Shown here piece by piece: positions 691 to 42,609 of a stretch of 64,000 nt of DNA. The notes beneath the pieces were generated by a model. It had not been told where the DNA came from. It searched no databases and saw only the letters and a list, made by a program, of their open reading frames with translations. Source of the DNA: Patescibacteria group bacterium. GTDB lineage: Bacteria > Patescibacteriota > Minisyncoccia > Minisyncoccales > PEYH01. The stretch is from assembly GCA_018900835.1 (NCBI GenBank), contig JAHIFQ010000015.1, positions 50,301 through 114,300 on the forward strand, given 5' to 3'. How positions within the stretch are numbered: position 1 is the first letter of the stretch; each line of letters opens with the position of its first letter. The translations under genes were made by a program, and so were the position numbers.

Positions 691-721
691 TAATTAGGTT
701 TTAAAATAGCAGGATAGAAAT

Positions 722-1189
722 ATGAAAGTAATTCTACTCAAAGACATAGAAAATTTAGGCAAGAAATACGAGGTAAAATCCATTAAAAATGGCTATGCCA
801 GGAATTTTTTGATTCCAAATGGTTTAGCGAAGCTTGCAACCTCTTCAGCCATAACTGAACTCAAGGAGATAAAAAAGAAAGAAGAATTATTAGCAGAAAA
901 ACATTTGATTGAAACCCAGGAAATTGCTTCAAAGTTTGATGGTCAGGGAATTGAGTTTTTCGTCAAAACAGGGGAGGACGGACAATTATTTGAATCAATT
1001 ACGCCTTTGAAGATTTCTAAAAAATTATGCGAAATGGGGTTTGAAATAAAAAAAGACCAGATTATTCTGGAAAAGCCGATAAAAGAATTAGGAGAATTTC
1101 CTGTGAAAATAATGCTTGACCACCATTTGGAAGCCAAGATTACTCTTATTGTTGAGCCAGAATCACCAAGAGAGCCATCTGAAGAATAA
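722..1189 (+). CDS. rplI: 50S ribosomal protein L9
   Basis: MKVILLKDIENLGKKYEVKSIKNGYARNFLIPNGLA is a typical L9 N-terminus. ~150 aa. Confidence 0.9.
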   Translation: MKVILLKDIENLGKKYEVKSIKNGYARNFLIPNGLAKLATSSAITELKEIKKKEELLAEKHLIETQEIASKFDGQGIEFFVKTGEDGQLFESITPLKISKKLCEMGFEIKKDQIILEKPIKELGEFPVKIMLDHHLEAKITLIVEPESPREPSEE

Positions 1190-1462
1190 TTATTCCACAG
1201 ATACTACTTTTGCTCTTCGCTGGGTTCCGTTGAATCTTCTTATCCGTTTGGTTGAAAACTTAACCAAACCTTCTTTGTTTGCGTAGAGAGTGTCATCTTT
1301 CCCTTTTCCAACATTTTTACCAGGCACATATTTGGTTCCTCTTTGTCGTATAATAATCATTCCTGGCTTGACGCTTTGGTCGGCGTTAACCTTGACCCCT
1401 AAATATTTGGGCCTTGAATCTCTTCCTAAACTTGTTGAACCAGAAGATTTTGTTTTAGACAT
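1190..1462 (-). CDS. rpmA: 50S ribosomal protein L27
   Basis: [17 protein letters not shown]...IIIRQRGTK matches the L27 consensus. 90 aa. Confidence 0.9.
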
Positions 1463-1520
1463 ATTAGAAAAATTTAACGAGTAAACGAGTTTTAATTTTT
1501 CTTATACCCGCCTTGGGCGG

Positions 1521-1721
1521 GTGGCTAAATTAAAAATTAAACGAGAAAAATTAAAAACAAAAAACTATATTTGTATGCTATCAAAAATTGTTAAATTAGT
1601 CAATAAAAACAAAGATGTTATCTTGTTGGCTCTGATAATATTTTTGGCAAGTTTATTTATTTTTTCTCTGATTTGGATTTTCATAGAACTTGGGTCAAGC
1701 AAACCGATTGAGATATATTAA
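1521..1721 (+). CDS. small hydrophobic hypothetical protein (66 aa, 1 TM)
   Basis: ORF only; hydrophobic C-terminal half. GC hairpin cccgccttgggcggg lies just upstream (1508-1522). Confidence 0.2.
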   Translation: MAKLKIKREKLKTKNYICMLSKIVKLVNKNKDVILLALIIFLASLFIFSLIWIFIELGSSKPIEIY

Positions 1722-1730
1722 ATCCACTCA

Positions 1731-3053
1731 ATGCGCCTTAGGCGCATTTTGGTTGATAAAAATGCGCAAATATGCCAGAATTTAATCAATATGGATGATT
1801 TGTTTGATAAAAATTTAGAAGAGGCGTTAAGGAAAGATGCCCCTTTGGCAGACCGCATTAGGCCTGAGGATTTTGACTATTTTTTCGGCCAAGAAGAATT
1901 GGTAGGGGAAAGCAGTCCTTTGCGCCGGGCTATTCAAAATGATAATCTAACTTCTTTGATATTTTGGGGACCACCGGGTTCGGGCAAGACAACTTTGGCA
2001 AGGATAATCGCTAAAAAAACAAAAGCAGATTTTGTGAAATTTTCTGCTGTTGTTACTGGGATAAATGATGTTAGGAAGGCGATTGAAAAAGCTAGAGAAA
2101 GGTTAAAATTTAAAAGACAAAAAACAATCCTTTTTATTGACGAGATTCATCGTTTTAATAAAGCTCAACAGGACGCTTTTTTACCTTATGTAGAGGATGG
2201 CACGATTGTTTTGATAGGAGCTACAACAGAAAACCCTTCTTTTTCAGTGATATCACCGCTCTTATCCCGTTCAGCGGTCTATGTGTTAAAGCCATTATCA
2301 AGAGATGCGTTGAAAAGTATTTTATTGCAGGCCTTGAAAAATAAAGATAGGGGATTCGGCAATTCCGAGATAAAAGTTGAAGAAAAGGCGTTTGAACGAT
2401 TGATTAATTTTGCTGACGGAGATGCGCGGGTTGGATTAAATGGCTTGGAGTTTATAGTTAACCATTTGAAAGCGGAAAAAAAGAATATTATAAAAGCGGA
2501 TGAGGTTTCTGAAATATTAAAAGAACATGCTCTGCGTTATGACAAAAAAGGAGAAGAGCATTACAATATAATCTCTGCGTTTATAAAAAGTATGAGGGAT
2601 TCTGACCCAAATGGCGCGCTTTACTGGTTGGCGAGAATGGTGGAGTCAGGGGAAGACCCAAGATTTATTGCGCGTAGAATGGTAATTTTTGCTTCCGAAG
2701 ATATTGGCAACGCTGACCCGCAGGCGATACAAATGGCAACAGCTATTGCTCACGCTGTTGAATATGTGGGTTTTCCTGAAGCACAAATTAATTTAGCCCA
2801 TGGAGTGACTTATCTTGCCACTGCTCCTAAAAGCAATGCTTCTTACTCTGCTTTGTTAGAAGCAAAAGAAGATGCTAAAAAAGGCGCTTTTGGGGTACCT
2901 CTGTATTTGCGAAATGCAGTCACTAATTTGATGAAAAAAATTGGGTATGGAAAGGGTTATCAATATGCCCACAATGTACCGGGCAAAAAGCCAGAACAAA
3001 CTCATTTCCCAGAAGAAATAGGGGAAAAACAATATTACCATCCAGAAAAATAG
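1731..3053 (+). CDS. rarA: Replication-associated recombination protein A (AAA+ ATPase RarA/MgsA)
   Basis: Walker A GPPGSGKTTLARIIA, Walker B ILFIDEIHRFNK. ~440 aa with MgsA C-terminal domain. Confidence 0.85.
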   Translation: MRLRRILVDKNAQICQNLINMDDLFDKNLEEALRKDAPLADRIRPEDFDYFFGQEELVGESSPLRRAIQNDNLTSLIFWGPPGSGKTTLARIIAKKTKADFVKFSAVVTGINDVRKAIEKARERLKFKRQKTILFIDEIHRFNKAQQDAFLPYVEDGTIVLIGATTENPSFSVISPLLSRSAVYVLKPLSRDALKSILLQALKNKDRGFGNSEIKVEEKAFERLINFADGDARVGLNGLEFIVNHLKAEKKNIIKADEVSEILKEHALRYDKKGEEHYNIISAFIKSMRDSDPNGALYWLARMVESGEDPRFIARRMVIFASEDIGNADPQAIQMATAIAHAVEYVGFPEAQINLAHGVTYLATAPKSNASYSALLEAKEDAKKGAFGVPLYLRNAVTNLMKKIGYGKGYQYAHNVPGKKPEQTHFPEEIGEKQYYHPEK

Positions 3054-3121
3054 CATTCTTTTTTCTAAGGTGATAGAATATAATAAAGGTCAAAAGATAA
3101 TTAATAAATTACATTAAAAAA

Positions 3122-3571
3122 ATGATAAATAAATTATTGAAGAATCGTTTGTTTATGTTGTTTATTGTTATAATACTCTTAGCATCAGCAATCTTTATTG
3201 CTATTGATTTCATTTGTTGGCCTGAAAAAACAGTTTCACCAACAAGTAGCGAGAACTATATTTTCACCGAGGCAAATGAGGGTGCTGTTCAGGTTTCGGT
3301 TGGACATGAATTTGTAGTGTTGCTTGAAACAAACCCAACTACTGGCTTTCAGTGGGGATTACAGCTGGACCCTAATTATATTGATTTTAAGGGGAAAGAA
3401 TATATTGCAGATGAATCAGCAGAGGAAATAGTCGGAGCCGGAGGTCATGAAAAGTTTACATTTACAGCAATGACCATAGGCCAGTCAGAAATAATCTTTG
3501 CTTATACTAGGCCGTGGGAAAGCATAGAGCCGAAAAAGGTTATTACATACAGCATTGTCGCAGTTGAATAA
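3122..3571 (+). CDS. Chagasin-family (I42) cysteine-peptidase inhibitor, membrane-anchored
   Basis: N-terminal TM then NPTTGFQW (chagasin NPTTG motif) and a GAGG loop. ~110-aa inhibitor domain. Confidence 0.6.
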   Translation: MINKLLKNRLFMLFIVIILLASAIFIAIDFICWPEKTVSPTSSENYIFTEANEGAVQVSVGHEFVVLLETNPTTGFQWGLQLDPNYIDFKGKEYIADESAEEIVGAGGHEKFTFTAMTIGQSEIIFAYTRPWESIEPKKVITYSIVAVE

Positions 3572-3577
3572 TAATAT

Positions 3578-4171
3578 ATGGATAACCAATTTATTGATTT
3601 AGAATATCAGAGGACTAAAATTGTCCGATATTTGGACAGTTTGGATGATGAAGAGAGGAGAAGGGCATTTCGTGCAATGGATTTGGCAGAGGAACAGCAT
3701 GCCGGACAATTTCGTTCAAGCGGGATTTCTTACATCATTCATCCTATCCGCGTTGCCCTTATTTTAGTTGAAGAATTAGGGATAGATGATAATGATTTGC
3801 TATGTGCCGGTTTTTTGCATGATGTCATAGAAGACGGGGTCTTGACAGTTACACGTCTAAATAATCTATTCGGTCCGGAGGTTAGCCGTATTGTTGAAAA
3901 ATTAACGCGTTATAAGTCGGTGGGTGAGTCGGAAGAAGAAAAATTAGAAAATAAGAAAAGAAAAGCGCAGGAGATAAGCAAGGCGGACGAAAATGTGCGG
4001 ATAATAAAACTTTGCGATGTTTTGGATAACGCTCGGTCAAATAACTTTATTCCCGAAACATCTCTGGATTTCCATAAGATTTTCCGTTGGAAGGAAGAAA
4101 CAAAATCTTATCTTCCGATCGCCGAAAAAACAAATCAAAGGATTTATGAGTTATTAAATCAGCTTGAATAA
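3578..4171 (+). CDS. HD-domain (p)ppGpp hydrolase-like protein (SpoT/RelA HD domain only; small alarmone hydrolase)
   Basis: HAGQFRSSGISYIIHPIRVALIL...GFLHDVIEDG...IIKLCDVLDNAR matches the Rel/Spo HD-domain motifs. No synthetase domain. Confidence 0.7.
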   Translation: MDNQFIDLEYQRTKIVRYLDSLDDEERRRAFRAMDLAEEQHAGQFRSSGISYIIHPIRVALILVEELGIDDNDLLCAGFLHDVIEDGVLTVTRLNNLFGPEVSRIVEKLTRYKSVGESEEEKLENKKRKAQEISKADENVRIIKLCDVLDNARSNNFIPETSLDFHKIFRWKEETKSYLPIAEKTNQRIYELLNQLE

Positions 4172-4538
4172 TATTATGATAGAAGAATATCGTTTTGGGA
4201 AAATGATGATTGAAGGCGATGAATATAATTATGATGTGGAAGTTGACTGGGAGGGAGAGGTTTTGGAATGGACGAGAAAGAACAGTCATATAATAGATAA
4301 GGAAGATATAGAAAGGGCGCTGGAAAAAGAGCCAGAGATAATTGTTGTCGGCACTGGCGAGTCAGGAGTCGCGCAGGTGACAGAGGACGCAAAACAAAAG
4401 TGCAAGGAAGCCGGAGTGGAGCTGATAATAGATATCACTGAAGAAGCAGTAAAAACATTTAATGTAATCTGCGCAGAGTCATTGGAAGAAGATGGTGAGC
4501 AAGCGGAGGTCATAGGGCTTTTCCATTTGACCTGTTAA
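4164..4538 (+). CDS. Mth938-like domain protein (DUF498 family)
   Basis: IIVVGTGESG ... C-terminal FHLTC is characteristic of Mth938-like proteins. Overlaps upstream gene by 8 nt. Confidence 0.55.
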   Translation: MNNIMIEEYRFGKMMIEGDEYNYDVEVDWEGEVLEWTRKNSHIIDKEDIERALEKEPEIIVVGTGESGVAQVTEDAKQKCKEAGVELIIDITEEAVKTFNVICAESLEEDGEQAEVIGLFHLTC

Positions 4539-4593
4539 TCATTAAGCAATTTTAATATGAAGAAAATTATTTTTGAGATATTAATTTTACATT

Positions 4594-5367
4594 ATGTCTG
4601 ATTATTACAAAGCAAAAAGGGATTATAGGATTTTTAAGCCGGGACAGTCGGGAGCGTTTAAAGTGAGCCGTTCAAAAATTGGCTTATTTATGGAATGTCC
4701 AAGGTGTTTTTATATGGATTGTTGCTTGGGCGTAAGCCGTCCGCCGGGATTTCCTTTTACTCTAAACAGCGCAGTTGACAAGCTTTTGAAAAAAGAATTT
4801 GATGTCCATCGGATTGCCAAAACCAGCCATCCTTTAATGGAAGAATATGGGATTGACGCAGTGCCGTTTCAAGACAAGCGGATTGACGAGTGGCGGGATA
4901 CGAGGAGGGGGATTCAATATATCCACGAGCCGACAAATCTTTTGATAATGGGCGCAATTGATGATATCTGGGTTAATCCGCAGGGAGAACTGCATATTGT
5001 GGATTACAAGGCAACATCAAAAGCTGGAGAAATAACATTGGATGCAGAGTGGCAGATTGGGTATAAAAGACAGATGGAGGTCTATCAATGGCTTTTTAGA
5101 CGAAATGAATTTAGTGTTTCTGATACATCATATTTTGTTTATTGTAATGGGAAGACCGATACAGAGGCATTTGATAAAAAGATTGAGTTTGATATTTCAG
5201 TAATTCCATACAAAGGAGATGACGCTTGGGTAGAACAAGCTATTCATGATATTAAAGAATGCCTTGAAAAGGACGCGATTCCGGAAATGGCGTCTGATTG
5301 CGATTATTGCAGTTATAGAAAAGCAGCTGCTCAAGAAAGCTACAAGTTTTCAAAGAAAAATAAATGA
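4594..5367 (+). CDS. Cas4-like PD-(D/E)XK nuclease with Cys cluster (paralog A)
   Basis: N-terminal CPRCF..CC, motif II GAIDD, motif III IVDYK, QxxxY-like QIGYKRQMEVY, C-terminal CDYC. Confidence 0.55.
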   Translation: MSDYYKAKRDYRIFKPGQSGAFKVSRSKIGLFMECPRCFYMDCCLGVSRPPGFPFTLNSAVDKLLKKEFDVHRIAKTSHPLMEEYGIDAVPFQDKRIDEWRDTRRGIQYIHEPTNLLIMGAIDDIWVNPQGELHIVDYKATSKAGEITLDAEWQIGYKRQMEVYQWLFRRNEFSVSDTSYFVYCNGKTDTEAFDKKIEFDISVIPYKGDDAWVEQAIHDIKECLEKDAIPEMASDCDYCSYRKAAAQESYKFSKKNK

Positions 5368-6029
5368 TAAAGATTTCGCCTAATTCTTTGAATCTGTATT
5401 TTGAATGTCCGTTTTGTTTTTGGCTGGAAAAGAATAGGGGAATCAAAAGACCTGCGCCGTTTCCTTATGAGTTAAACTTGGCGGTTGACCAGGTTTTGAG
5501 GCGTGATTTTGACAAACATAGAGCAAAAGATAGAAAGCATCCTTTACTTGAAGCAAACAATATTCCTGCCAAGCTTTTTTCAAACCAAAAACTTTTGAAC
5601 GAATGGCGGAACAAGTCCAAGGGATTGGAATATTATGACGAAAAAACAGGGGCAGTCATTTTCGGAGTGCTTGATGATGTGTTGGATTTTGGGAAAGGGA
5701 AACTGGCGCCGTTTGATTATAAGTCAACAGGAAGCAGTGTGCCCAAGGTCTATGACAGGTTTCAGCTTCAGATGGATGTTTACACTTTTCTTTTGGAGAA
5801 GAACGGATACGCCACTCCAAGAAAAGGCGTTTTAGTATTTTATACTGTTGATAAGGACGATTCTTTTGATGACCGATTGCCGTTCAAAAAAGAGATTCAT
5901 ATTATTGATACTGACCCATCATATATTTTAAGAACATTCCGAGAAGCGATTAAGTTTTTGAAAAAACCTGCTCCATTGGCTCACAGCCCGGAATGCGAAT
6001 TCGGCAGGTGGGCCGAGCTTTTAAAATAA
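5364..6029 (+). CDS. Cas4-like PD-(D/E)XK nuclease (paralog B), overlaps paralog A by 4 nt
   Basis: CPFCF, RPAPFPYELNLAVD, GVLDDV, FDYKSTG, QLQMDVY. Clear paralog of 4594-5367. Confidence 0.55.
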   Translation: MIKISPNSLNLYFECPFCFWLEKNRGIKRPAPFPYELNLAVDQVLRRDFDKHRAKDRKHPLLEANNIPAKLFSNQKLLNEWRNKSKGLEYYDEKTGAVIFGVLDDVLDFGKGKLAPFDYKSTGSSVPKVYDRFQLQMDVYTFLLEKNGYATPRKGVLVFYTVDKDDSFDDRLPFKKEIHIIDTDPSYILRTFREAIKFLKKPAPLAHSPECEFGRWAELLK

Positions 6030-6043
6030 TCTTTAGAATCACA

Positions 6044-6070
6044 ATGTTTAGAGGTTCAACCTCTAAACAT
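6044..6070. repeat. Palindromic element family 2 (ATGTTTAGAGGTT-C-AACCTCTAAACAT), copy A
   Basis: Perfect 13+1+13 palindrome. Identical copies at 7433-7459 and 42206-42232. Confidence 0.85.
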
Positions 6071-6077
6071 CGAATGA

Positions 6078-6100
6078 TTTTGGAAACCAGGTTTCCAAAA
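6078..6100. repeat. Palindromic element family 3 (TTTTGGAAACC-A-GGTTTCCAAAA), adjacent to family-2 copy
   Basis: 11+1+11 palindrome. Second copy at 46657-46679. Confidence 0.8.
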
Positions 6101-6180
6101 TGGTGGTTTCCAGAATGGCAACAAAAACCATACTTGACACCATTTTTACCATTTTAATTATTTTAATTAAATATTAATAT

Positions 6181-6639
6181 ATGAAAACAAAAAGTAAAAT
6201 CATTATTCTAGTATTTACGTTAATTATTTTAATAATTGGGACAATTGTTTTTATAGAAGACTTTAAATATGAAAAACATGGTAATGGATGGAATGTCAGT
6301 CCGGCATTTGGAATAACAGAATTTTTATATAGAAAAATGTGTATCATCCAGAATGGGAGAGGAGTTAGCCTTGGATTTTCTGCTCGTTATTACTGTGATT
6401 TTATGTTTGAAGATGCTGGCAAAGAATGCATCAACCATGAACAATGTAAAGGAATATGTACTATGAGTAAAGAGGATGCTGAAATCTATTGCCCCGATTA
6501 TGCAAGTGCCATTTTTATTACAGAGCCTAATTGTGAGAATGCTAAAGGAATATGTTCCAAGTACCCTAGTCACGGATTTGGTGAGTCTATTTTAGTTAAC
6601 AATGGGTTTGTGACTAGAAACCTTTTAAATTATGATTAA
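6181..6639 (+). CDS. Cys-rich secreted/membrane-anchored hypothetical protein
   Basis: N-terminal hydrophobic segment and ≥10 Cys in the C-terminal 100 aa. Confidence 0.4.
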   Translation: MKTKSKIIILVFTLIILIIGTIVFIEDFKYEKHGNGWNVSPAFGITEFLYRKMCIIQNGRGVSLGFSARYYCDFMFEDAGKECINHEQCKGICTMSKEDAEIYCPDYASAIFITEPNCENAKGICSKYPSHGFGESILVNNGFVTRNLLNYD

Positions 6640-6798
6640 ATTGTCTTAGAAATAGATTAATTTAATTATTATGGAAGAAAAAATGGTGTTAACTCTGGTT
6701 TTTAACGCTATTTTTTAATAAATTGCGCCTCGGGAAAACCCGAGGAAAAACCATAATGTTTTTTTGAAATCTGAATAAGCTTAATCCGATAAAATATC

Positions 6799-7335
6799 AT
6801 GTTATCAATCATTATTTCATATATATTTTTTATAATCGCTCTAATATTTTTGTTGTCTCTTACGGTTTCCAGTTTTTCGATTGCTCCGTGGGTTCCTTGT
6901 AAAAAGAAGGACTTGGAGCGGATTAATCGTTTGGCCGGATTAAAATCCGGTGAGTTATTTTGTGAATTGGGCTGCGGTGATGGGCGAGTTTGTAGATATA
7001 TTGCCAAAAAGAATCCCGAATCACGAATAGTTGGCATTGAATTATCTCTGCCGATTTTTTTGTGGGCGAAATTGATAGAATTATTTTTTAAGTCAGATAA
7101 TATGAAAATAAAATTTGGCAATGCTCTTAAGTATAATCTTTCAGAAATGGATGTAATATATACTTATGCTTTAGTACAATCTATTAATGGTAAATTAAAA
7201 AATAAATTTGAGAAAGAAATGAAAAATGGGGCAAAAGTTTTGTCTTATGCCTTTATCATTAATGAGTGGAAAGGGAAGACATATTTTGATAGGCCTGATA
7301 GCAAAAGCTTGCCGATTTATATTTATGAATTTTAA
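6799..7335 (+). CDS. Class I SAM-dependent methyltransferase with N-terminal TM segment
   Basis: ELGCGDGRV glycine-rich SAM-binding motif I. Confidence 0.55.
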   Translation: MLSIIISYIFFIIALIFLLSLTVSSFSIAPWVPCKKKDLERINRLAGLKSGELFCELGCGDGRVCRYIAKKNPESRIVGIELSLPIFLWAKLIELFFKSDNMKIKFGNALKYNLSEMDVIYTYALVQSINGKLKNKFEKEMKNGAKVLSYAFIINEWKGKTYFDRPDSKSLPIYIYEF

Positions 7336-7431
7336 ATTGTTGTATGGAACCAAAAAACGCCCTCCCAGCGTCTTTGGACAAAGAACTATTTGAAAAAATC
7401 TCCGATAAAATCAGAGAAATATAATTGGCTC

Positions 7432-7460
7432 AATGTTTAGAGGTTCAACCTCTAAACATT
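7432..7460. repeat. Palindromic element family 2, copy B (plus partial direct repeat CTCTAAACAT at 7464-7473)
   Basis: Identical to 6043-6070 core. Confidence 0.85.
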
Positions 7461-7474
7461 TTTCTCTAAACATC

Positions 7475-7640
7475 TCGAGTCAGAGAAGGGTCAGAGGGTG
7501 AATGCATAGCATCCACCCTCATTAACACGCGCGTTGCGCCGAAGCGCAATTCAAAAGAACGGTTGAGTCGGTCATGCCTCTCCAGGCAGTGGTAGATTGA
7601 GAAAAATAGGACAAAGGAGTTTAGGGTGAGGCAGGGGACC
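7475..7640. ncRNA. GC-rich structured intergenic element (candidate ncRNA / cis-regulatory leader), identity unknown
   Basis: ~55% GC island in a ~35% GC intergenic region. On the minus strand it carries GAGGGTG..CACCCTC and GCGC-UUCG-GCGC stem-loops. No ORF. Confidence 0.3.
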
Positions 7641-7757
7641 GATTCAATTATATTTTAACTTATCAACAACATCTGTCAAGCGGAATAATCCACAATAATG
7701 ACCAATATATCTTTTTAGGTCATTTTTTGTTAGAATAAAGGAAATAATATTGGAATT

Positions 7758-9467
7758 ATGAAAAAAGCGCTTTTAACAGCAATTATTTTTGTTTCTCTGT
7801 TTGGAGCAGGTTTTGTGATGGCTTATGAGGCAATAGATAGTTTTGATGTGATTATTAAAGTTAATTCTGACAGCACTCTTAATATTGAAGAACAAATTAA
7901 ATATAATTTTGGACTTGCTGACAAACACGGCATTTACAGGGATATTCCTATAAAGTATCAGGCAAGGGGAGGAAATTATAATCTTAGAATTTCTGATATT
8001 GAAGTGGTCAATGAAAATGGGCAGCCATATAAATTTGCCATTTCCTCTGAAGGCGAATACAAGAGAATCAAAATTGGCGATGCAGACAAATATGTTACTG
8101 GGCAGAAGACATATATTATAAGATATAAGATTGGGAGGGCGATAAATTATTTTCAGGACTACGATGAAATCTATTGGAATGCCACAGGCAATGAATGGCA
8201 AGTGCCTATTTTAGAATCATCAGCAAAAGTGATTTTGCCGGAAGCAACTAATATTCAATCAATTAAGGCAGATTGTTTTGCCGGAGCAATTGGAAGCATA
8301 GAGAAATGTTCCAGCGTTATTATCTCATCAGAGCCATCAGGAATGATTGAGTTTTCCCAGACAGCGCTGTCCTCATATCAGGGCTTAACCATAGTTGTTG
8401 GGGTGCCGAAAGGAGTAATTACGCCACCTTCCAAGTTTTCTGGAGCAATAGAGTTTTTGCGAGATAATTTGATTTTATTCCTACCAATAGTAGTATTCAT
8501 TATTTTCTTCACTATCTGGTGGAAAAAAGGCAAAGACCCGAAAGGCAGAAAAACAATTATTGCTCAATATTATGCGCCTGATAACTTGACTCCCGCAGAA
8601 GTAGGAACAATTATTGACGAAAGGGTTCATAATAAAGATATTTCAGCAGAGATAATACATTTGGCGATTAAGGGATATTTAAAAATTAAACGGAATGAAA
8701 AAAAGATTTTATTCGCCAAATCAATTGATTATGAACTTATCAAACTCAAAGAAGATGATGGCTTGCAAAATGATTTTGACCAAAAATTGTTCAAAAGCAT
8801 CTTCAAGACAAAAAACGAAGTAAAGCTTTCTGATTTAAAGAAGGATTTTTTCAAAAGCGTTAAAGAAATCAGGGACTTGATTTACAAATCAGTTACAAAA
8901 AATGGCTATTTTGTAAGCCATCCGAATAAGGCGCGTATAAGTTATATTTCTATTGGCATTATTTTTCTTTTGCCCCTTATGTTCGGAGCTGGGCTTCTTA
9001 GCAAGTCCACAGTAGTTATCAGTTTGTTAATAACAGGTCTCTTAATAATGGTTTTTGGTTTGATTATGCCGAAAAGGACATTAAAAGGAGTTTTAGCCAA
9101 AGAACATATTTTGGGATTAAAGGACTATATAGAAACAGCAGAAAAAGAGAGGATTAAGTTTCATAATGCGCCTCAAAAAAATCCAGAATTATTTGAAAAA
9201 CTTTTGCCAATGGCAATGGTCTTAGGAGTAGAAAAGGAATGGGCAGTTCAATTTAAGGATATTTATCTTAACCAACCAAGCTGGTATGAGGGGCCAGTTG
9301 GTACTGGTTTTAACTCTATCATTTTTGTCGGAAATCTTAATTTTTTCGCATCAGCAGTTCGTGGGTCAATGGCTGCTCCGGGCGGGGCAGCAGGTGGAAA
9401 GAGCGGTTTTGGGGGAGGTGGTTTTTCAGGAGGCGGATTCGGTGGCGGAGGAGGTGGAAGTTGGTAA
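7758..9467 (+). CDS. DUF2207-like membrane protein with Gly-rich C-terminal tail
   Basis: Signal/TM at N-terminus, several TM helices in the middle, C-terminal GGGFSGGGFGGGGGGSW tail typical of DUF2207 proteins. Confidence 0.5.
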   Translation: MKKALLTAIIFVSLFGAGFVMAYEAIDSFDVIIKVNSDSTLNIEEQIKYNFGLADKHGIYRDIPIKYQARGGNYNLRISDIEVVNENGQPYKFAISSEGEYKRIKIGDADKYVTGQKTYIIRYKIGRAINYFQDYDEIYWNATGNEWQVPILESSAKVILPEATNIQSIKADCFAGAIGSIEKCSSVIISSEPSGMIEFSQTALSSYQGLTIVVGVPKGVITPPSKFSGAIEFLRDNLILFLPIVVFIIFFTIWWKKGKDPKGRKTIIAQYYAPDNLTPAEVGTIIDERVHNKDISAEIIHLAIKGYLKIKRNEKKILFAKSIDYELIKLKEDDGLQNDFDQKLFKSIFKTKNEVKLSDLKKDFFKSVKEIRDLIYKSVTKNGYFVSHPNKARISYISIGIIFLLPLMFGAGLLSKSTVVISLLITGLLIMVFGLIMPKRTLKGVLAKEHILGLKDYIETAEKERIKFHNAPQKNPELFEKLLPMAMVLGVEKEWAVQFKDIYLNQPSWYEGPVGTGFNSIIFVGNLNFFASAVRGSMAAPGGAAGGKSGFGGGGFSGGGFGGGGGGSW

Positions 9468-9475
9468 TAAAATAA

Positions 9476-10201
9476 ATGCGTATGTTAGATAATAATTTCA
9501 GGCAGTTTATAAAAGAGCAAATTGCTTTGCCGGAAAAGAAATGGAACAGCGTTTTTGTTGATTATATTCAAAAAAAACATCAGGAATTACATAGAGAAGT
9601 GGAGAATTTTTCTTCGGAGCAGAAGCTGGAAAAAGAATTCCAAAGATATCTTGAATGTCTCGATATCAGCAAAGATGATTTGATAGGTAAGCGCATTCTT
9701 GATTTAGGTTGCGGGGAAGGGGATTTTATTAAGCATTGTTTGGGGCAAGGGATAAGTAAAGAGGCCTATGGTTTGGATATTCTTATTGAGCCAGAGGAGA
9801 TAAATTCCGGCTATCGTCAATTTTTTCTAAAACACGATTTTGAGAAAGCAATTCCGCTTAAAGATTTTGACTATATTTTTTCAGTGTCAGCTATTGATGC
9901 TCCTTATTCTAAAGAAATAGACGGGAACTTAAGGGAAACAATAATTTTAGCATTGGTTGCCTTGAAGCACGAAGGGGAAATTAGGATTTTCTCTGTGCGC
10001 AAAGCTCCGCCATCTAGCGGTTTGACAGGAATTGATTTTTCCCGAAAAAAATGGATAGAGCTTTTAGATGATTTAAAAACGAAAAATTGGATTAACTATG
10101 AGCTAAGGCCGATTGATATTAGAGTGGCTGGCAACAAGCCGGATGTTTGGCTTGAAGAAGTTTTGATAATAAGAAAAGAGCTGGTGAAAATTGATTTTTA
10201 A
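9476..10201 (+). CDS. SAM-dependent methyltransferase
   Basis: ILDLGCGEGDF motif I. Confidence 0.5.
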   Translation: MRMLDNNFRQFIKEQIALPEKKWNSVFVDYIQKKHQELHREVENFSSEQKLEKEFQRYLECLDISKDDLIGKRILDLGCGEGDFIKHCLGQGISKEAYGLDILIEPEEINSGYRQFFLKHDFEKAIPLKDFDYIFSVSAIDAPYSKEIDGNLRETIILALVALKHEGEIRIFSVRKAPPSSGLTGIDFSRKKWIELLDDLKTKNWINYELRPIDIRVAGNKPDVWLEEVLIIRKELVKIDF

Positions 10202-10219
10202 AATAATTATCATAAAAAT

Positions 10220-10684
10220 ATGAAAATATATTTAATAATAATTCCATTAATTACTGTAATAGTTGCTTTGTCTGGAAGTTTTGTGACAAGCAGGGGAATG
10301 GATTGGTATAATCAGATTAACTTGCCTGCTTGGACCCCTTCTGGCGATATTATCGGAATCGCTTGGACCCTGATATTTATCCTTGCAACATATTCGGCTA
10401 TTTTATTTTGGAACAGGGGATTTAGAAATAAAAGATTTTGGATAGTCATTGCTTTATTCTTGCTCAATGGGGCGCTGAATGCTCTTTGGTCGTTTCTTTT
10501 CTTTGGGTTGCATTTTGTGGGCGCGTCTATTTTAGAAATGATAGCGCTTGAGACAACCATTATTTGTTTGATATTTCTAATCAAGCCAACTTCAAGATTG
10601 GCATCAATTTTATTATATCCCTATGCCATCTGGGTTGCTTTTGCAACATATTTGGCTTATTCTATTTTAATGCTTAATATGTAA
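10220..10684 (+). CDS. tspO: TspO/MBR family tryptophan-rich sensory protein
   Basis: ~150 aa, 5 TM helices, conserved LNALWSFLFF motif, Trp-rich. Confidence 0.75.
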   Translation: MKIYLIIIPLITVIVALSGSFVTSRGMDWYNQINLPAWTPSGDIIGIAWTLIFILATYSAILFWNRGFRNKRFWIVIALFLLNGALNALWSFLFFGLHFVGASILEMIALETTIICLIFLIKPTSRLASILLYPYAIWVAFATYLAYSILMLNM

Positions 10685-10697
10685 TTGATTTAATAAT

Positions 10698-11423
10698 ATG
10701 AAGAAAAACTTTCTAATTTCTTTAATTGTTCTTTTCTCTTTAATCATCATTGCCTTTATTGTTTGGGCAATATTGTCAATGAATTCTTTGAAGTGTGGAG
10801 AAAACAGAGCCAAGGAGATAGCGGCCAATTGGATTTTAGAGAATTCAATGACATATAAGTTTGATGGTTATGGTCTGGCGCTTGATAGCGTAGAGGATAT
10901 GGATTGTGATAAATGTTATGAGTTTTCGTTCTGGTTCAATGCTCGTCATTCCGGCTATGGCAACAGGATAAATATGGTTTTAGCTCAAATTATTACTCCG
11001 CATAAAATGGTAATTAAAATTAATCAATGCAAAATTATGGAAGCAATTACTGATGGTCAATTTGATGAAATTAAAAATGAGCCAATTATTCCTTCTTCGC
11101 TCGGGATAGAGATTTTAAAACAAGGACAAGGAGCGCAGGCAAAAACAGGGGATAAGATTAGCGTTAATTATTCTGGAAAGTTGTTAAATGGAGAGGAGTT
11201 TGATTCCAATTTTGGCAAGGACAGTCCTTTTGTCTTTACTCTCGGAGCAGGACAAGTTATTCAGGGTTGGGATTTTGGCCTGCTTGGTATGCAGATTGGA
11301 GAGAGGCGAAAAATCACAATCCCGTCGGACTTGGGTTATGGCAGCAGGGGCGCTGGCGCAGGACTTATTCCTCCTGATTCAACATTGATTTTTGAGGTTG
11401 AACTTTTAAACATTAATAATTAA
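10698..11423 (+). CDS. FKBP-type peptidyl-prolyl cis-trans isomerase, membrane-anchored
   Basis: C-terminal FKBP domain: FDSNFGKDSPFVFTLGAGQVIQGWDFGLLGMQIGERRKITIPSDLGYG. Confidence 0.85.
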   Translation: MKKNFLISLIVLFSLIIIAFIVWAILSMNSLKCGENRAKEIAANWILENSMTYKFDGYGLALDSVEDMDCDKCYEFSFWFNARHSGYGNRINMVLAQIITPHKMVIKINQCKIMEAITDGQFDEIKNEPIIPSSLGIEILKQGQGAQAKTGDKISVNYSGKLLNGEEFDSNFGKDSPFVFTLGAGQVIQGWDFGLLGMQIGERRKITIPSDLGYGSRGAGAGLIPPDSTLIFEVELLNINN

Positions 11424-28305: not shown

Positions 28306-28659
28306 TTAAAGTAGTTTTTTCCTGCCTTTTTGGATTTGTGCCACAAGTGGTTTGAGCGGAGATAAATCTTCTTTGATCGTTTTCCAAAGAACTTTTTTAT
28401 CCACGCCGAAATATTCGTGTACTAATTTATTGCGCATTCCGGTCATAATTTTCCATGGAATATCAGAATGTTGTTTTTTTATATCTGAAGGGATACGCCT
28501 TGCAGCCTCGCCTATTATTTCGAAGTTTCTAATAGTTGCGTCTACTGTCTTAAGGTCTTTTGAGAATTCGCTAAAATCTAATTTTTCCGTATATCTTTCT
28601 ATTTTTTCTATTGCCTCAAGAATATCATCAATATATACTTTATAATCCCTTTCAGACAT
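28306..28659 (-). CDS. hepT: HepT-like HEPN toxin (DUF86) of a type VII TA pair
   Basis: RNKLVHEY (Rx4-6H HEPN motif). Likely start at MSERDYK. Overlaps mntA stop by 8 nt. Confidence 0.7.
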   Translation of the reverse strand: MSERDYKVYIDDILEAIEKIERYTEKLDFSEFSKDLKTVDATIRNFEIIGEAARRIPSDIKKQHSDIPWKIMTGMRNKLVHEYFGVDKKVLWKTIKEDLSPLKPLVAQIQKGRKKLL

Positions 28660-28945
28660 AAACAGTTTCTTTAATGATTCCGTCCTTGATTCTGGATTTA
28701 AGCGCATCTTTCATTACTAAATCAACTTTTAGTTTTAGTTGTATTTTTAGATAATTTTCAAGCCCGATGAAGCTGAACAAACTGATTGGTTCCGAGAACT
28801 CTACTAAGAGATCTAAATCGCTAGATTTTTTCTGTTTATTTTTTACATAAGAGCCAAAAACACCGATTTTTTTTACTTTAAACTTGTCTTTTAAAATCGG
28901 CTCTAATTCTTTAAGGTTTTTTTGAATCTGAATAAGCTTAGCCAT
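28652..28945 (-). CDS. mntA: MNT-type nucleotidyltransferase antitoxin
   Basis: GVFGSYVKNKQKKSSDLDLLVEF (GSx9-13DxD NTase motif). 97 aa. Confidence 0.7.
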   Translation of the reverse strand: MAKLIQIQKNLKELEPILKDKFKVKKIGVFGSYVKNKQKKSSDLDLLVEFSEPISLFSFIGLENYLKIQLKLKVDLVMKDALKSRIKDGIIKETVYV

Positions 28946-28963
28946 ACTACTATTATAACTTAA

Positions 28964-29965
28964 TTAAAGGCGATAATCTATGCTCATTGCTTGTTTCACG
29001 AGCGCTAGTGTTTCTACTGCTCTTTTTTGGGTCTTTTTTCTCCCTTGTTCCAAAATCTCTTTTATCAAATTTGGTTTTTTGGCAAATTGGCTTCGCTTCT
29101 TGCGAATTGGGTCTAAAAATTCGTTCAACATCTCTGCCAACTGTTTTTTGCAGGCAACGCATCCGATTTTGCCTGTTTCGCATAAGGATTTAATGTCCAA
29201 AGCTTTTTCTGGGAAAAAAGCTAAATAATATTGATAAATATTACAAATTTCTGGTCTACCCGGGTCATCTATTCGTATTTTTTTAGTATCAGTAATTGCT
29301 TTCATCACTTTTTCTTCCACAATCTTGGGACTGTCAGATAAGAATATGGCATTGTTTCTTGATTTTGACATTTTCTGGCCATCTAATCCGGGTAAAGTTG
29401 GCGTTTGTCCGATTATTGCTTCTGGGACAGGAAACACTTTGCCGAATAAACGATTGAATGTTGTAGCGATTTCCCTCGTAATTTCAATATGTGGCAATTG
29501 GTCTTTGCCCACTGGTACTGCATCAGCTCTTACGCACAAGATATCAGCTGCCTGGGATACAGGATAACCAATAAATCCCAAACTCGCTTTTTTAGTGCCT
29601 GACGCTCTTATCTCGTCTTTGACGGTCGGGTTTCTCTCCACTCGCGCCATTGTTATCAGCATTGAAAACAAAAGTGTTAATTCCGCGATTTCCGGTATTT
29701 GGGATTGGATAAATATGGTTGATTTACTCGGGTCAATGCCAACAGATAAATAATCCAGCACAATTTCTTTGATGTTTTTTTCTATATTTTCAACCTTAGA
29801 CAATTGGTCTGATAGAACCTGATAATCAGCAATGATAAAATATGAGTCGTATTTGTCTTGAAGTTCCACTCTGTTTTTAAGCGAACCGACATAATGGCCA
29901 AGATGTAATGGTCCAGTCGGCCTATCCCCTGTTAAAATCGTTTTTTTCATAAAATTACTTGACAA
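28964..29965 (-). CDS. trpS: Tryptophanyl-tRNA synthetase
   Basis: ILTGDRPTGPLHLGHYVG (HIGH) and KMSKS (KMSKSRNNAI). 333 aa. Confidence 0.85.
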   Translation of the reverse strand: MSSNFMKKTILTGDRPTGPLHLGHYVGSLKNRVELQDKYDSYFIIADYQVLSDQLSKVENIEKNIKEIVLDYLSVGIDPSKSTIFIQSQIPEIAELTLLFSMLITMARVERNPTVKDEIRASGTKKASLGFIGYPVSQAADILCVRADAVPVGKDQLPHIEITREIATTFNRLFGKVFPVPEAIIGQTPTLPGLDGQKMSKSRNNAIFLSDSPKIVEEKVMKAITDTKKIRIDDPGRPEICNIYQYYLAFFPEKALDIKSLCETGKIGCVACKKQLAEMLNEFLDPIRKKRSQFAKKPNLIKEILEQGRKKTQKRAVETLALVKQAMSIDYRL

Positions 29966-29996
29966 ATTTTTATTTATTTATTAGGCTTATAACATT

Positions 29997-30205
29997 ACGG
30001 AGGTAGCTCAGGGGTAGAGCACTCTTCTAACACCGATTAAGGTAGCGCAATTCTAATCCACCAAGACTGTTGGTGCGAGAAAAGGATAAGCGAACCTAGC
30101 TTGATGTCTGGCAGTCACCATGAAGGACTGATAGTCCCAGCTCAAGTTCGGAAGAACAAGAGAGGCCCGGGATTCGAATTCTCGCCTCCGCACCAGCACA
30201 CTACT
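29997..30205 (+). tRNA. tRNA gene interrupted by a ~134-nt insertion at anticodon-loop position 37/38 (candidate intron). Apparent anticodon AAC/Val-like but junction ambiguous. CCA encoded.
   Basis: 5' half 29997-30032: acceptor ACGGAGG, U8A9, D-arm GCTC-AGGGGTA-GAGC, stem CTCTT, loop CTAACA. 3' half 30167-30205: C-AAGAG, AGGCC, T-arm CGGGA-TTCGAAT-TCTCG, acceptor CCTCCGC, A73, CCA. A1xC72 mismatch. Confidence 0.5.
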
Positions 30206-30210
30206 AAGAA

Positions 30211-30282
30211 GTGGCGATAGCTCGCTGGCAAGAGCACTCGGACATATCCGATAGATTGAAGGTTCAAATCCTTCTCGCCACT
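30211..30282 (+). tRNA. tRNA-like gene with aberrant anticodon arm (5-bp stem TCGGA/TCCGA around a 4-nt loop CATA). Possible pseudogene or non-canonical tRNA.
   Basis: Perfect acceptor GTGGCGA/TCGCCAC, T8A9, D-arm GCTC..GAGC, T-arm GAAGG-TTCAAAT-CCTTC. No canonical 7-nt anticodon loop can be drawn. Confidence 0.4.
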
Positions 30283-30324
30283 TCAGCGCATTACAAGGGA
30301 TCTCTATGAGATCCCTTTTCTCTT

Positions 30325-31167
30325 TTATTTAAACAACTTAATTTTTTCTTCTACTTTTTTCTGAACTGCTTCAATGACTTTCGGATAAACTTCGTATGGC
30401 TTAATTGTTTTCTTTTTTAACTCCTTTTGCAAGGCCTGCTTCCAAACAATTCGCAATTCAGTATTGATATTTATTTTAACAATTCCATTTTTAATGGCTT
30501 TCTTGATATCGTTCTCATCAGTCCCTGACCCCCCGTGCAGAACTAAAAATACTTTAATCTCTTTATTGATTTTTTTCAACAAATCAATATTAAGCCTTAT
30601 TTTATTCCGATATGTTCCGTGAACATTACCAATATTTATTGCCAATGAATCAATGCCAGTGGCTTTTACGAATTTCTTCGCCTTTTCTATATCCTCATAA
30701 AATGACTCTTTTGCCTTGAAGCTTTTTTTATGGGTTTCCGAGCTTCCTTTGATTGATTTTATCTCGCCCTCAACCAATACCCCTTTTCTATGCGCATATT
30801 CAACGACTTTTCTCGTTTGTTTTATATTCTCCTCGAATTTCAAACCAGACCCGTCAAAGTGAACAGAGTCATATCCGTATTGAATCGCCGTTTTAATGAT
30901 GTTTATGCTTTTCCCGTGGTCTAAATGCAGAAAAAGATTAGGGTAAGGTTTTCTAAAATTGTCCATAAATTTTCTGATTCCTTCTATGCCCAAAAAATCC
31001 GCCTCGCTTTCGCTGGTTCCAAGTATAACAGGGACATTTTTCTTCATTGCTGCCTTGACTATTCCATTAAATTGAACAATTGAGGAAAAATTGAATTGAC
31101 CTATCGCCCATTTCTCCTTATGAGCTTTCTGTAAAAAATATTTAAGAGAATTATTTTTAGAGCTCAT
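30325..31167 (-). CDS. fba: Class II fructose-bisphosphate aldolase
   Basis: Class II aldolase motifs: HLDHG, VLHGGSGT, ININTE. Confidence 0.8.
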   Translation of the reverse strand: MSSKNNSLKYFLQKAHKEKWAIGQFNFSSIVQFNGIVKAAMKKNVPVILGTSESEADFLGIEGIRKFMDNFRKPYPNLFLHLDHGKSINIIKTAIQYGYDSVHFDGSGLKFEENIKQTRKVVEYAHRKGVLVEGEIKSIKGSSETHKKSFKAKESFYEDIEKAKKFVKATGIDSLAINIGNVHGTYRNKIRLNIDLLKKINKEIKVFLVLHGGSGTDENDIKKAIKNGIVKININTELRIVWKQALQKELKKKTIKPYEVYPKVIEAVQKKVEEKIKLFK

Positions 31168-32184: not shown

Positions 32185-32904
32185 CTATTCTATTACTACC
32201 TCTTCAAAATCAACTAATTCTTTTTTAAACTTAAGCCAATTATTAACAAATTCTCGGCAACCATCTGCACCTTCCATTATTTTCTCTAAAAATTCCCTAT
32301 TTGTCAAAGAAGGGAAATTTTTCTTTCCTAAATAATCTGGATAACTTGACCATTTATATTTATTTTCTAAAAAATCAATTGCCGCATCTATGTTTTCTAT
32401 TTGCACTCCTTTGTTTTTCCATTCCAGAATTATTAATGACATTGGATTTGTGTGTATATAAACAAACACAGTTTCTAATCGCTCTTCTGTCTCGATACGA
32501 ACTATCCTGTATCTTCCTTGAAAAAGATGTCCATTCCTCTCATATTTTTTATTATAGTAACCACTATAACCTGCTCCAATCTTATGCATTAATTTGCTGA
32601 TTCCGTTATCGCAAGTTTGTTTTATTAACAAATGAATATGATTTGGCATTAGGCAAAATGCCAAAATTTCTACCAAAAGTTTCCTTTTCTTTCTATTCTC
32701 GCCGAGATCGTTTCTCGGCAGAGATAGCGGAGATAAGTTTCTTCTATAATCTCTGGATACTGGATTTTCGTCGTTAAATTCAAAAAGGTTGTTTATCATT
32801 CGAAAATAATCTTTATCGCCACGAAAAAGGTCTATCCCCTCTATTGTTCGGGTGACGATATGATATATTTCTCCATTTACTATTTCAGGTCTTTTTGATG
32901 GCAT
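32185..32904 (-). mobile_element. REP-associated tyrosine transposase (RAYT; IS200/IS605 TnpA Y1 HuH family)
   Basis: HuH motif LMPNHIHLLI and catalytic Tyr region YSGYYNKKYERNGHLFQGRY. Flanked by REP palindromes. Carries one REP in-frame (LPRNDLGE). Confidence 0.75.
32701..32719. repeat. REP family 1 copy inside RAYT coding sequence (in-frame)
   Basis: GCCGAGATCGTTTCTCGGC. Confidence 0.85.
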
Positions 32905-41408: not shown

Positions 41409-42609
41409 TTAATAATAATCTATTATACTTTGCCAGTCGTTCAGGCATAACTGGCGCGCCTGATTTAATGAAATCAGCGCCAACCCCGATTGCAAAGTCA
41501 GCAATGAAATCATCCATTGTTTCTCCTGAACGATGAGAAACCATTATTTTCCATTGATGCGCTTTTGCCAATTTTATTGCCTCTATTGCTTCGCTAACTG
41601 TTCCTATTTGATTTACTTTAATAATTACTCCGTTGCAAGCTGTTTTTTCAATCGCTTCTTGTATTCTCAATGGATTTGTGACCAATAAATCATCCCCGAT
41701 AATTGTCATCTTACTCCCCATCTTATTATAAATCCCTTGAAATCCCTGCCAATCATCTTCTGCAAAAGGATCTTCAAAACCAATAATAGGATATTTTACA
41801 ATCAAATTATTATAAAATTCAAGCAATGCGCTTCTGCTGAAAGGCAGGCCTTCAAGCTGATAATTTTCTCCATCTTGGAAATGAGTGGCAGCACAATCAA
41901 GAAGAAATCCAACTTCTTTTTTATTAAACCCAGCTTTAACCACCGCTTCTTGCAAAAAATCCAATGCTTCAATAGTAGAGGGAATCATCGGAGCAAATCC
42001 TCCTTCATCCCCTATCGGAAGTTTATCAAACTTCCTGCTTAAAATTCCTTTTAGTGATTGATAAATATCTTTTGCTGACTGAAAATTTTCTGAAAAACTA
42101 TTCATTTGGGGAACAATCATAAACTCTTGAATATCTAAATCATTATTAGCGTGAGCTCCCCCATTGATGATATTAAAACAAGCTAAAGGCATCTTAAAAT
42201 TTTCAATGTTTAGAGGTTCAACCTCTAAACATTGGGAGATGTGTTTGTAGAGAGGGATGTTTTTAGTTTGAGCGCCGAGCTTGGAAATTGCCATTGAGAC
42301 CCCGACAATTGCGTTGCCACCAAGCACCGATTTATCAGCTGTTCCATCAATCTCAAGCATTAAATTATCTATTTCTTTTTGATTTGTTGGGTCCTTGCCA
42401 ATTAATTGCGGGGCAATGATTTCATTTACATTTTTAATCGCTTTTGGAACATCTATGACTTTTGCTTCCAGCTTACCAGTGGAAGCGCCAGAAGGAACCC
42501 CTGCTTTAACAGAAAAATCAGAGGTTTCTGCTATAACCTCTATTGTCGGATTCTTTCGCGAATCCAATATTATCTGCGCTGTAATTGATTTAATCTTCAC
42601 CATTTTCAT
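41383..42609 (-). CDS. eno: Enolase, carrying an in-frame palindromic-element insertion
   Basis: SITAQIILDSRKNPTIEV N-terminus, NIINGGAHA, KVNQIGTVSEAIEA. Likely start MVKIKSI. Confidence 0.85.
   Translation of the reverse strand: MKMVKIKSITAQIILDSRKNPTIEVIAETSDFSVKAGVPSGASTGKLEAKVIDVPKAIKNVNEIIAPQLIGKDPTNQKEIDNLMLEIDGTADKSVLGGNAIVGVSMAISKLGAQTKNIPLYKHISQCLEVEPLNIENFKMPLACFNIINGGAHANNDLDIQEFMIVPQMNSFSENFQSAKDIYQSLKGILSRKFDKLPIGDEGGFAPMIPSTIEALDFLQEAVVKAGFNKKEVGFLLDCAATHFQDGENYQLEGLPFSRSALLEFYNNLIVKYPIIGFEDPFAEDDWQGFQGIYNKMGSKMTIIGDDLLVTNPLRIQEAIEKTACNGVIIKVNQIGTVSEAIEAIKLAKAHQWKIMVSHRSGETMDDFIADFAIGVGADFIKSGAPVMPERLAKYNRLLLIEEKENEK
42204..42234. repeat. Palindromic element family 2, copy C, in-frame inside eno (encodes ~QCLEVEPLNIE)
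   Basis: CAATGTTTAGAGGTTCAACCTCTAAACATTG (15+1+15). Confidence 0.85.

Follow-up and report, generated by a model that had tools for sequence, protein, structure and literature searches.

A tRNA-like gene with a short anticodon loop in a two-gene block between trpS and the aldolase gene of a Patescibacteria bacterium

Between trpS and the class-II fructose-bisphosphate aldolase gene (FBA) of a Patescibacteria/CPR bacterium with a G+C content of ~37%, two tRNA-like genes are located next to each other, and the second of them (30211–30282, plus strand) has an anticodon loop of fewer than seven nucleotides. This raises the question whether the gene still decodes, whether it is a remnant or a tRNA-shaped RNA kept for another purpose, whether it is a scar of integration, or whether the short loop is an error of the assembly. 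All positions refer to the window, i.e. the whole 64-kb stretch of DNA that was analysed. Both neighboring ORFs are located on the minus strand, trpS at 28964–29950 with its ATG at 29950 and FBA at 30325–31167 with its stop codon at 30325–30327. The distance of the tRNA-like gene to the trpS start is 260 nt. The TrpRS encoded in the window shares 73% identity with a Paceibacterota MAG protein, and closer homologues are labelled Parcubacteria or Patescibacteria.

A tRNA-derived gene with an altered anticodon arm

On the plus strand the gene reads GTGGCGA-TA-GCTC-GCTGGCAA-GAGC-AC-TCGGA-CATA-TCCGA-TAGATT-GAAGG-TTCAAAT-CCTTC-TCGCCAC-T, with an acceptor stem at 30211–30217/30275–30281 in which 7/7 pairs are formed, a D arm at 30220–30235, an anticodon-arm hairpin (stem 30238–30242/30247–30251, loop CAUA at 30243–30246), a T arm at 30258–30274 with the canonical TTCAAAT loop, and U as the discriminator base at 30282. 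Model scoring, which the initial annotation had proposed as a check, resulted in an end-to-end match to the Rfam tRNA family (RF00005) with 46.3 bits, above the gathering score of 29 (E = 1e-6 for the 64-kb window). It was the sole Rfam match within the window. The MFE fold is a cloverleaf of −28.6 kcal/mol (z = −4.6) with 21/21 stem pairs intact, and 0/200 dinucleotide shuffles equalled it. As both the Rfam score and the cloverleaf fold exceed chance, 30211–30282 is a real, clearly tRNA-derived gene. Rfam alignment and MFE fold both contain the 7-bp acceptor, the D and T arms and the G18G19/T-loop elbow; acceptor, T arm and G18G19, i.e. the top half of a tRNA, are intact. Since all 21 stem pairs are preserved and the G+C content is 0.51 in comparison to 0.37 for the genome, any decay of the gene would have to be very recent or limited to the loops. 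CCA is not encoded (the next letters are TCA), and position −1 is an A.

For comparison, two ordinary tRNA genes are located on the same contig ~9 kb past each window end, tRNA-Lys(UUU) and tRNA-Gln(UUG). Both were called by ARAGORN, have A14 and an anticodon loop of 7 nt, and reach 64.5 and 66 bits versus 46.3 for the tRNA-like gene. Over the 64-kb window ARAGORN made zero tRNA calls, the tRNA-like gene included. CCA is encoded in one of the two ordinary genes and missing in the other, and its lack in the tRNA-like gene is therefore uninformative. No paralogue of the tRNA-like gene was found in ~83 kb of the genome (the window and ~9 kb on each side). A census of loop lengths covered 238 distinct class-I tRNA-like sequences from the retrieved DNA: 229 have a 7-nt loop and two a 6-nt loop, namely the gene described here and a sequence on an indel-ridden contig, which also carries a truncated tRNA-His with several missing bases.

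In the MFE fold the anticodon arm is UCGGA/CAUA/UCCGA, with 5 bp of stem and a loop of 4 nt. The Rfam alignment divides the same region, in tRNA numbering, into CUCGG/ACAUAU/CCGAU with a 6-nt loop and a C27·U43 mismatch. The loop is reduced to 4 nt because the outer bases A and U of the 6-nt loop pair with each other; a pair-probability calculation gave 0.79 for this closing A-U pair. The initial annotation had read the arm as TCGGA-CATA-TCCGA and three nucleotides short. The 4-nt loop holds for the MFE fold, but the gene has 72 nt versus 73 for a standard class-I tRNA of the same build, leaving 1 nt missing, in the loop. The related suggestion of a 3-nt deletion in a CAU-type loop could not be upheld, as the net deficit is 1 nt and a CAU parentage is not demonstrable, the best matches being weak ones to tRNA-Ile(GAU). 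In addition, acceptor stem, D-arm and T-arm had all been described as canonical. This is correct for the acceptor and the T arm but not for the D arm, in which G14 (30224) takes the place of the near-universal A; positions 15/48 are C/U and not purine/pyrimidine. Both core tertiary partners, U8-A14 and R15-Y48, are non-standard. G14 alone is no proof of decay, because two phage tRNAs of otherwise normal look (L292, L295) also carry it in a similar D loop.

In comparison to a canonical bacterial elongator tRNA (RF00005) the gene has retained the 7-bp acceptor, the 4-bp D stem, G18G19, the 5-bp T stem, TTCAAAT and a variable region of 5 nt. It differs in its 6-nt (folded 4-nt) loop, G14, C15/U48, C27·U43 and the absence of U33, and the combination of a 5-bp stem with a 7-nt loop, U33 and purine 37 is not present. 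We therefore rejected a filing as canonical decoding tRNA, given the deviating anticodon loop and core pairs, the lacking ARAGORN call and a score ~20 bits low. Judging from its sequence, the gene is almost certainly unable to read codons because it has no usable anticodon loop, neither one of 7 nt nor a U33.

A working decoder with an unusual loop, be it a CAU (Met/Ile2-type) or UAU tRNA or a frameshift-promoting tRNA, is highly improbable in our view. We are not aware of any natural 6-nt anticodon loop described as functional, and none came up in a search of the literature. In model bacteria Met and Ile identity relies on A73, and U73 of the tRNA-like gene is unsuited to either. Furthermore, U33 is missing, the outer loop bases pair to a tetraloop, and G14/C15 disturb the core. 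Its absence at the syntenic junction of all 8 relatives (see below) also means that it is not an essential isoacceptor for the clade. On the other hand, the loop contains CAU followed by A, resembling an anticodon and A37, the remaining cloverleaf is intact, and natural tRNAs with 8- and 9-nt anticodon loops exist (PMC7609411). Loops of these lengths were also present in our census, a 9-nt loop (AGCTACTCG) in a tRNA-like gene of L093 (431–495) and an 8-nt loop (CTGACTAA-type) in a recurrent tRNA-like family (L113, L125, L133, L141, L143, L200).

With regard to the parentage of the gene, blastn against phages, plasmids and E. coli genomes revealed weak generic tRNA similarity only. The best full-length matches were phage tRNA-Ile(GAU) with 74–77% identity and E = 0.02–0.7, too weak for naming the parent isotype. 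The 5' acceptor strand and the D arm are His-like: when metagenome DNA was scanned with a pattern of this strand, the D arm and the T loop, allowing any loop length, 93 of the 119 matches were tRNA-His. None of the matches had G14 or a 6-nt loop. A tRNA-His identity was rejected, since the gene has A at −1, U at 73 and no GUG, as opposed to G-1/C73/GUG. During this survey we also noticed sequences with a tRNA-His-type acceptor end (G-1, C73, GGTGGCTG...CAGCCACC) and the loop TTTGTAA (UGU, Thr) in L121, L152, L155, L161 and L192; L176 and L205 feature the loop TCAGTAA on the same type of scaffold.

Single-base deletions are a common class of error, and the other 6-nt-loop case of the survey sits on a contig with a truncated, indel-marked tRNA-His. 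A sequencing or assembly artefact concealing a true loop of 7 nt is nonetheless extremely unlikely. The loop contains no homopolymer run, and assemblies from three other samples (ENA ERZ27247124, Logan SRR9644739 and Logan SRR6976411), whose contigs we reached by way of the TrpRS and FBA encoded in the window, show 100% identity to the window over 29951–30326. They were produced by two or more assembly pipelines (ENA contigs, Logan contigs) and match base for base. An assembly error, which the initial annotation had named as a way to refute its observation, is thus ruled out at assembly level. NCBI assembly GCA_018898995.1 is identical to the window over 1–11189, the range to which this comparison was limited. 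Wherever the assemblies of this genome share DNA, they agree at 100% identity, leaving no population variation from which selection could be judged. The independent Logan contigs L082 and L083 both terminate at window position 30326, the base after the block terminator, in the FBA stop codon. This shared end may be a branch of the assembly graph caused by strain variation.

The two-gene block and its insert-bearing partner

The tRNA-like gene belongs to a lineage-specific block of ~375 nt (29951–30324), which fills the space between the trpS start and the FBA stop. The block is oriented opposite to FBA and trpS and is inserted in an otherwise tight junction. At its beginning a promoter-like site (29959–29987, plus strand) can be read from the sequence, consisting of TTGACA (29959–29964), a 17-nt spacer and TAGGCT (29982–29987). 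The first of these hexamers (-35) matches the consensus perfectly; the second (-10) retains T1, A2 and T6. A consensus promoter scanner, for which ≥4/6 matches per hexamer were required, did not report the site. The 46-nt region in which it is located has a G+C content of 15%. Transcription from this candidate promoter is predicted to start ~0–3 nt ahead of the first tRNA.

This partner gene (29997–30195, plus strand) was detected by a custom scan for acceptor, D and T arms and received neither an Rfam nor an ARAGORN call. Its 5' part (29997–30033) is separated from the 3' part, which extends to 30195 and includes an encoded CCA, by a 124-nt insert in the anticodon loop (~30034–30157). When the insert is removed at 37/38, the loop reads CUAACAC with the anticodon AAC. 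The predicted fold preserves the cloverleaf, with an extended anticodon arm and a structured insert. The gene has an A1·C72 mismatch, and A53-U61 replaces G53-C61. The partner is also abnormal, in three ways, which is consistent with a block outside the core decoding set. If the tRNA-like gene is a disabled tRNA copy, its main value is a caveat for annotation: Rfam-type models would report a tRNA that presumably cannot decode, and ARAGORN misses the gene together with its partner.

No Rfam match to intron, ribozyme or riboswitch families, group I introns included, was found on 29900–30400 at permissive thresholds, and a group I intron would, in our judgement, need more than the 124 nt of the insert. 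It contains TTAAGGTAGCGCAATTC, which we take to be a 16/17 match to the universally conserved 23S rRNA segment CUAAGGUAGCGAAAUUC (I-CeuI site region). In the literature that we searched, neither tRNA introns nor anticodon loops of reduced length are described for this group. The insert raises the question how, or whether, such inserts get removed in bacteria. The partner insert and the pair as a whole are leads of greater interest than the short-loop gene alone.

Further interrupted tRNAs were observed in the retrieved DNA. On the minus strand of L166 (~181 nt, 506 nt from the reverse-complement start) the anticodon loop of a tRNA-Gly(UCC) is split by a ~110-nt insert, and within this insert lies another complete gene for tRNA-Gly(UCC). 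The outer gene also occurs without interruption on a different contig of the same metagenome, on the minus strand of L090 at 8910. Likewise, L147 (minus strand, ~159 nt from 86 in the reverse complement) and L234 (minus strand at 8903) carry tRNAs with anticodon-arm inserts of ~40–90 nt, that of L147 with the inverted repeat TGCCGAC/GTCGGCA on its two sides. Such short anticodon-arm inserts, judged too short for group I introns, may be commoner in tRNAs than annotated.

From the CCA of the partner to the 5' end of the tRNA-like gene there are 15 nt (GCACACTACTAAGAA, 30196–30210, plus strand). Twelve nt past the tRNA-like gene a terminator scan identified an intrinsic terminator (30295–30327, plus strand) of the form AAGGGATCTC-TAT-GAGATCCCTT followed by a T-run, with a 10-bp stem containing 5 G-C pairs. 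It adjoins the FBA stop codon on the opposite strand. On the FBA-trpS strand the terminator has no T-run, which makes read-through antisense to the block plausible. In the window genome trpS must be expressed either by such read-through or from a new promoter. A 91-aa open antisense frame across the block, which we searched in protein space for spurious ORFs, gave no match. Elsewhere in the window the perfect palindrome AATGTTTAGAGGTTCAACCTCTAAACATT occurs in 3 copies (6042–6070, 7431–7459, 42203–42233) and looks REP-like or like a shared terminator. This palindrome is unrelated to the block terminator.

Distribution and origin of the block

Relatives were collected by TrpRS similarity from genome contigs and from a protein database with contig look-ups, and only the syntenic junction was compared. 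The block is absent from this junction in 8/8 relatives with TrpRS identities of 91, 88, 87, 87, 79, 77, 75 and 73%. In all eight the gene order PPDK, PfkB, FBA, trpS, followed by toxin-antitoxin genes and/or valS, is kept, apart from one relative in which FBA is missing. There trpS overlaps its upstream gene or is 0–154 nt apart from it, with no spacer containing a tRNA; FBA and trpS in particular overlap or are separated by 0–128 nt. As the synteny search for orthologues returned none of the relatives with the block, there was no basis for a comparative alignment. On this pattern, a single recent gain in this lineage would be the most economical explanation. With regard to the same gene cluster, the PPDK of relative L308 (1–679) has 1344 aa with intein-splicing and LAGLIDADG domains, i.e. 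an intein; the PPDK of the window has 804 aa and no intein.

Searches of viral contigs were likewise negative. The exact 15-mer of the anticodon arm occurred at 71 loci, none of them in a tRNA context; a pattern for the short loop that left the stems free, one for the T arm and acceptor, and scans with the partner insert and with the partner 3' half returned 0 matches each. Among the metagenome, viral and protein-space searches and the eight relatives, the tRNA-like gene is confined to one clonal lineage.

The anticodon loop of tRNA genes is a common crossover site of integrases. Here the lesion lies exactly within the anticodon loop, the partner has an insert in its own anticodon loop, and the block is an insertion at a variable junction. 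These points are consistent with a scar of integration or excision, either an att relic or a hybrid from aberrant recombination in the anticodon loop, and integrating elements are documented to yield tRNA fragments (PMC9897764). However, the gene is of full length with 7/7 acceptor pairs, and the window contains neither a duplicated half-tRNA nor direct repeats. A further copy of some part of the block, as might be expected for a repeat or MITE, was present neither in the window nor in the loci compared. In addition, the flanking ORFs that were scanned encode no integrase gene or domain, and relatives that lack the block have a Y1 transposase-like gene as well. We therefore consider a scar very unlikely, and the integration-site relic put forward in the initial annotation is not supported, given a full-length gene with a perfect 7-bp acceptor, no integrase among the flanking ORFs scanned and no second partial copy. 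The Y1 (IS200-like) transposase homologue (239 aa, 32185–32904) is located 1.9 kb from the block, and its position is kept in some of the relatives.

On the other side of trpS, toxin-antitoxin pairs have been swapped in the interval to valS (window 28306–28945, minus strand; L207, L210, L214). This interval harbors MNT/HepT in the window genome, MNT/HepT and HicAB in one relative, and only HicAB in two others. A link of the block to the adjacent MNT/HepT pair was rejected, as relatives carry the pair without the block.

A probable non-decoding remnant or possibly a selected RNA

The initial annotation had left open whether the gene is a pseudogene or a tRNA-like structural RNA. Both options are supported by an intact top half, a loop of <7 nt, a score ~20 bits low and the restriction to one lineage. 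The explanation that we prefer, with confidence evenly balanced, is that of a decoding-incapable tRNA remnant (pseudo-tRNA) inside a two-gene insertion. The gene is tRNA-derived, carries a decoding lesion and is absent at the syntenic junction in 8 relatives, as expected for a pseudo-tRNA. Like the tRNA pseudogenes and partial tRNAs reported from prokaryotes, it derives from a tRNA, carries a lesion that disables it, scores low and occurs patchily; unlike these, it is of full length with intact stems, belongs to an apparently complete transcription unit and has no adjoining integrated element (PMC9897764).

As a pseudo-tRNA the gene would be transcribed as the second cistron of a unit consisting of promoter, insert-bearing tRNA, 15-nt spacer, tRNA-like gene and terminator. 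With acceptor stem, T arm and G18G19/T-loop elbow intact, the transcript would be treated as a tRNA by RNase P, 3'-end and CCA-adding enzymes. Cleavage by RNase P at 30210/30211 would, as a side effect, release the partner with a short, accessible trailer of 15 nt. The anticodon arm would collapse to the 5-bp stem with its 4-nt loop and offer no anticodon to the ribosome, and efficient charging is unlikely, as those acceptor and anticodon identity elements that were checkable are absent. The remnant is probably still transcribed and cut out: the parts recognised by RNase P, 3'-end and CCA enzymes are intact, and it is the part needed by the ribosome and most synthetases that is broken.

At most, the tRNA-like gene might serve as a processing handle for its partner. 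Its cloverleaf lies 15 nt 3' of the partner CCA, and position and fold are compatible with a handle for RNase P. The closest functional analogy would be found in elements of the mascRNA type. The mascRNA of MALAT1 and mitochondrial 'tRNA punctuation' are tRNA-like elements for 3'-end processing in eukaryotic or organellar systems. They share with the present gene a cloverleaf whose anticodon arm is reduced and a position immediately behind another RNA, where the RNase P cut would set the upstream 3' end. In contrast to these elements, any normal tRNA would do equally well at this position, and the processing is a prediction only.

What speaks against a remnant, apart from the intact stem pairs, the high G+C content and the occurrence of G14 in normal-looking phage tRNAs, is the unit itself: with 375 nt, a perfect -35 hexamer and a strong terminator, it has the look of something maintained, not decayed, in a small and compact genome. 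An alternative is a selected, non-decoding tRNA-like RNA, with the partner and the short-loop gene forming a functional module, which we regard as rather unlikely. Such a module might titrate a tRNA-binding enzyme or toxin as a decoy or sponge, serve as a carrier for non-ribosomal aminoacyl transfer, have a regulatory role, or be a cis-antisense element. The latter is conceivable since transcription of the unit runs against the FBA-trpS message and read-through would be complementary to the whole block; the terminator without T-run on that strand makes such read-through plausible. Several features are compatible with selection, namely the intact top half, the non-standard anticodon arm in both genes, the own promoter-like site and terminator, and the G+C content elevated above that of the genome. 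Furthermore, viral contigs hold a conserved tRNA-like family with covarying stems in which a 4-nt loop takes the place of the anticodon loop. On the opposite side, the gene is known from a single clonal lineage and has no homologue on which covariation or conservation could be tested, and there is no link to the MNT/HepT pair, which is found in relatives that do not have the block.

A bacterial precedent for a non-translational role is tRNAOther of B. cereus, a pseudo-tRNA that has a Trp anticodon and regulates trpS1 by a T-box mechanism (PMC3399842). Both are bacterial tRNA-like genes outside translation with a connection to trpS. The comparison covers such descriptive features. The tRNA-like gene differs from tRNAOther in that it has no Trp anticodon (no CCA in the loop) and no T box. 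A T-box effector of this type was rejected, since no T-box was found in the window at the Rfam gathering score and there are ≤46 nt of intergenic sequence upstream of trpS. Together with the absence of any other riboswitch in the window, this also weighs against a selected RNA. If the gene nevertheless owes its maintenance to a function, it would offer a compact bacterial case of a tRNA scaffold reused without its anticodon in a streamlined genome with little spare DNA, and non-translational roles of tRNA-shaped RNAs would become testable in Patescibacteria.

The most far-reaching version, which we put forward as a speculation with a small chance of being correct, is that the pair is a dedicated module of anticodon-disabled tRNA-like RNAs, acquired and kept by this CPR lineage for a non-decoding job such as titration of an enzyme or toxin, non-ribosomal carriage of amino acids or an antisense brake on FBA-trpS. 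Should this be true, the pair would, together with the viral tetraloop family and the insert-bearing and nested tRNAs, point to an unrecognised class of anticodon-less tRNA-shaped RNAs in uncultivated bacteria and phages.

The viral family is conserved and GC-rich and was found in L286 (7437–7489), L287, L288, L289, L291 and L296–L300. Its members possess a D loop with G14, a T stem of 6 bp and, in place of the usual anticodon arm, a 5-bp stem with a 4-nt loop; loop and stem vary (GCAA, CUAG, UUCG, GCAG). ARAGORN called 0/9 of the members tested, and Rfam reported none at the gathering score in the 6 that were scanned. The G14-type D arm and the 5-bp stem with 4-nt loop are shared with the tRNA-like gene. 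In contrast to the latter, the family is a separate, GC-rich sequence family below the Rfam tRNA threshold, and it is probably an analogue at most. In L286 the element is located at the 3' end of a small phage ORF, ~200 nt upstream of the large terminase gene.
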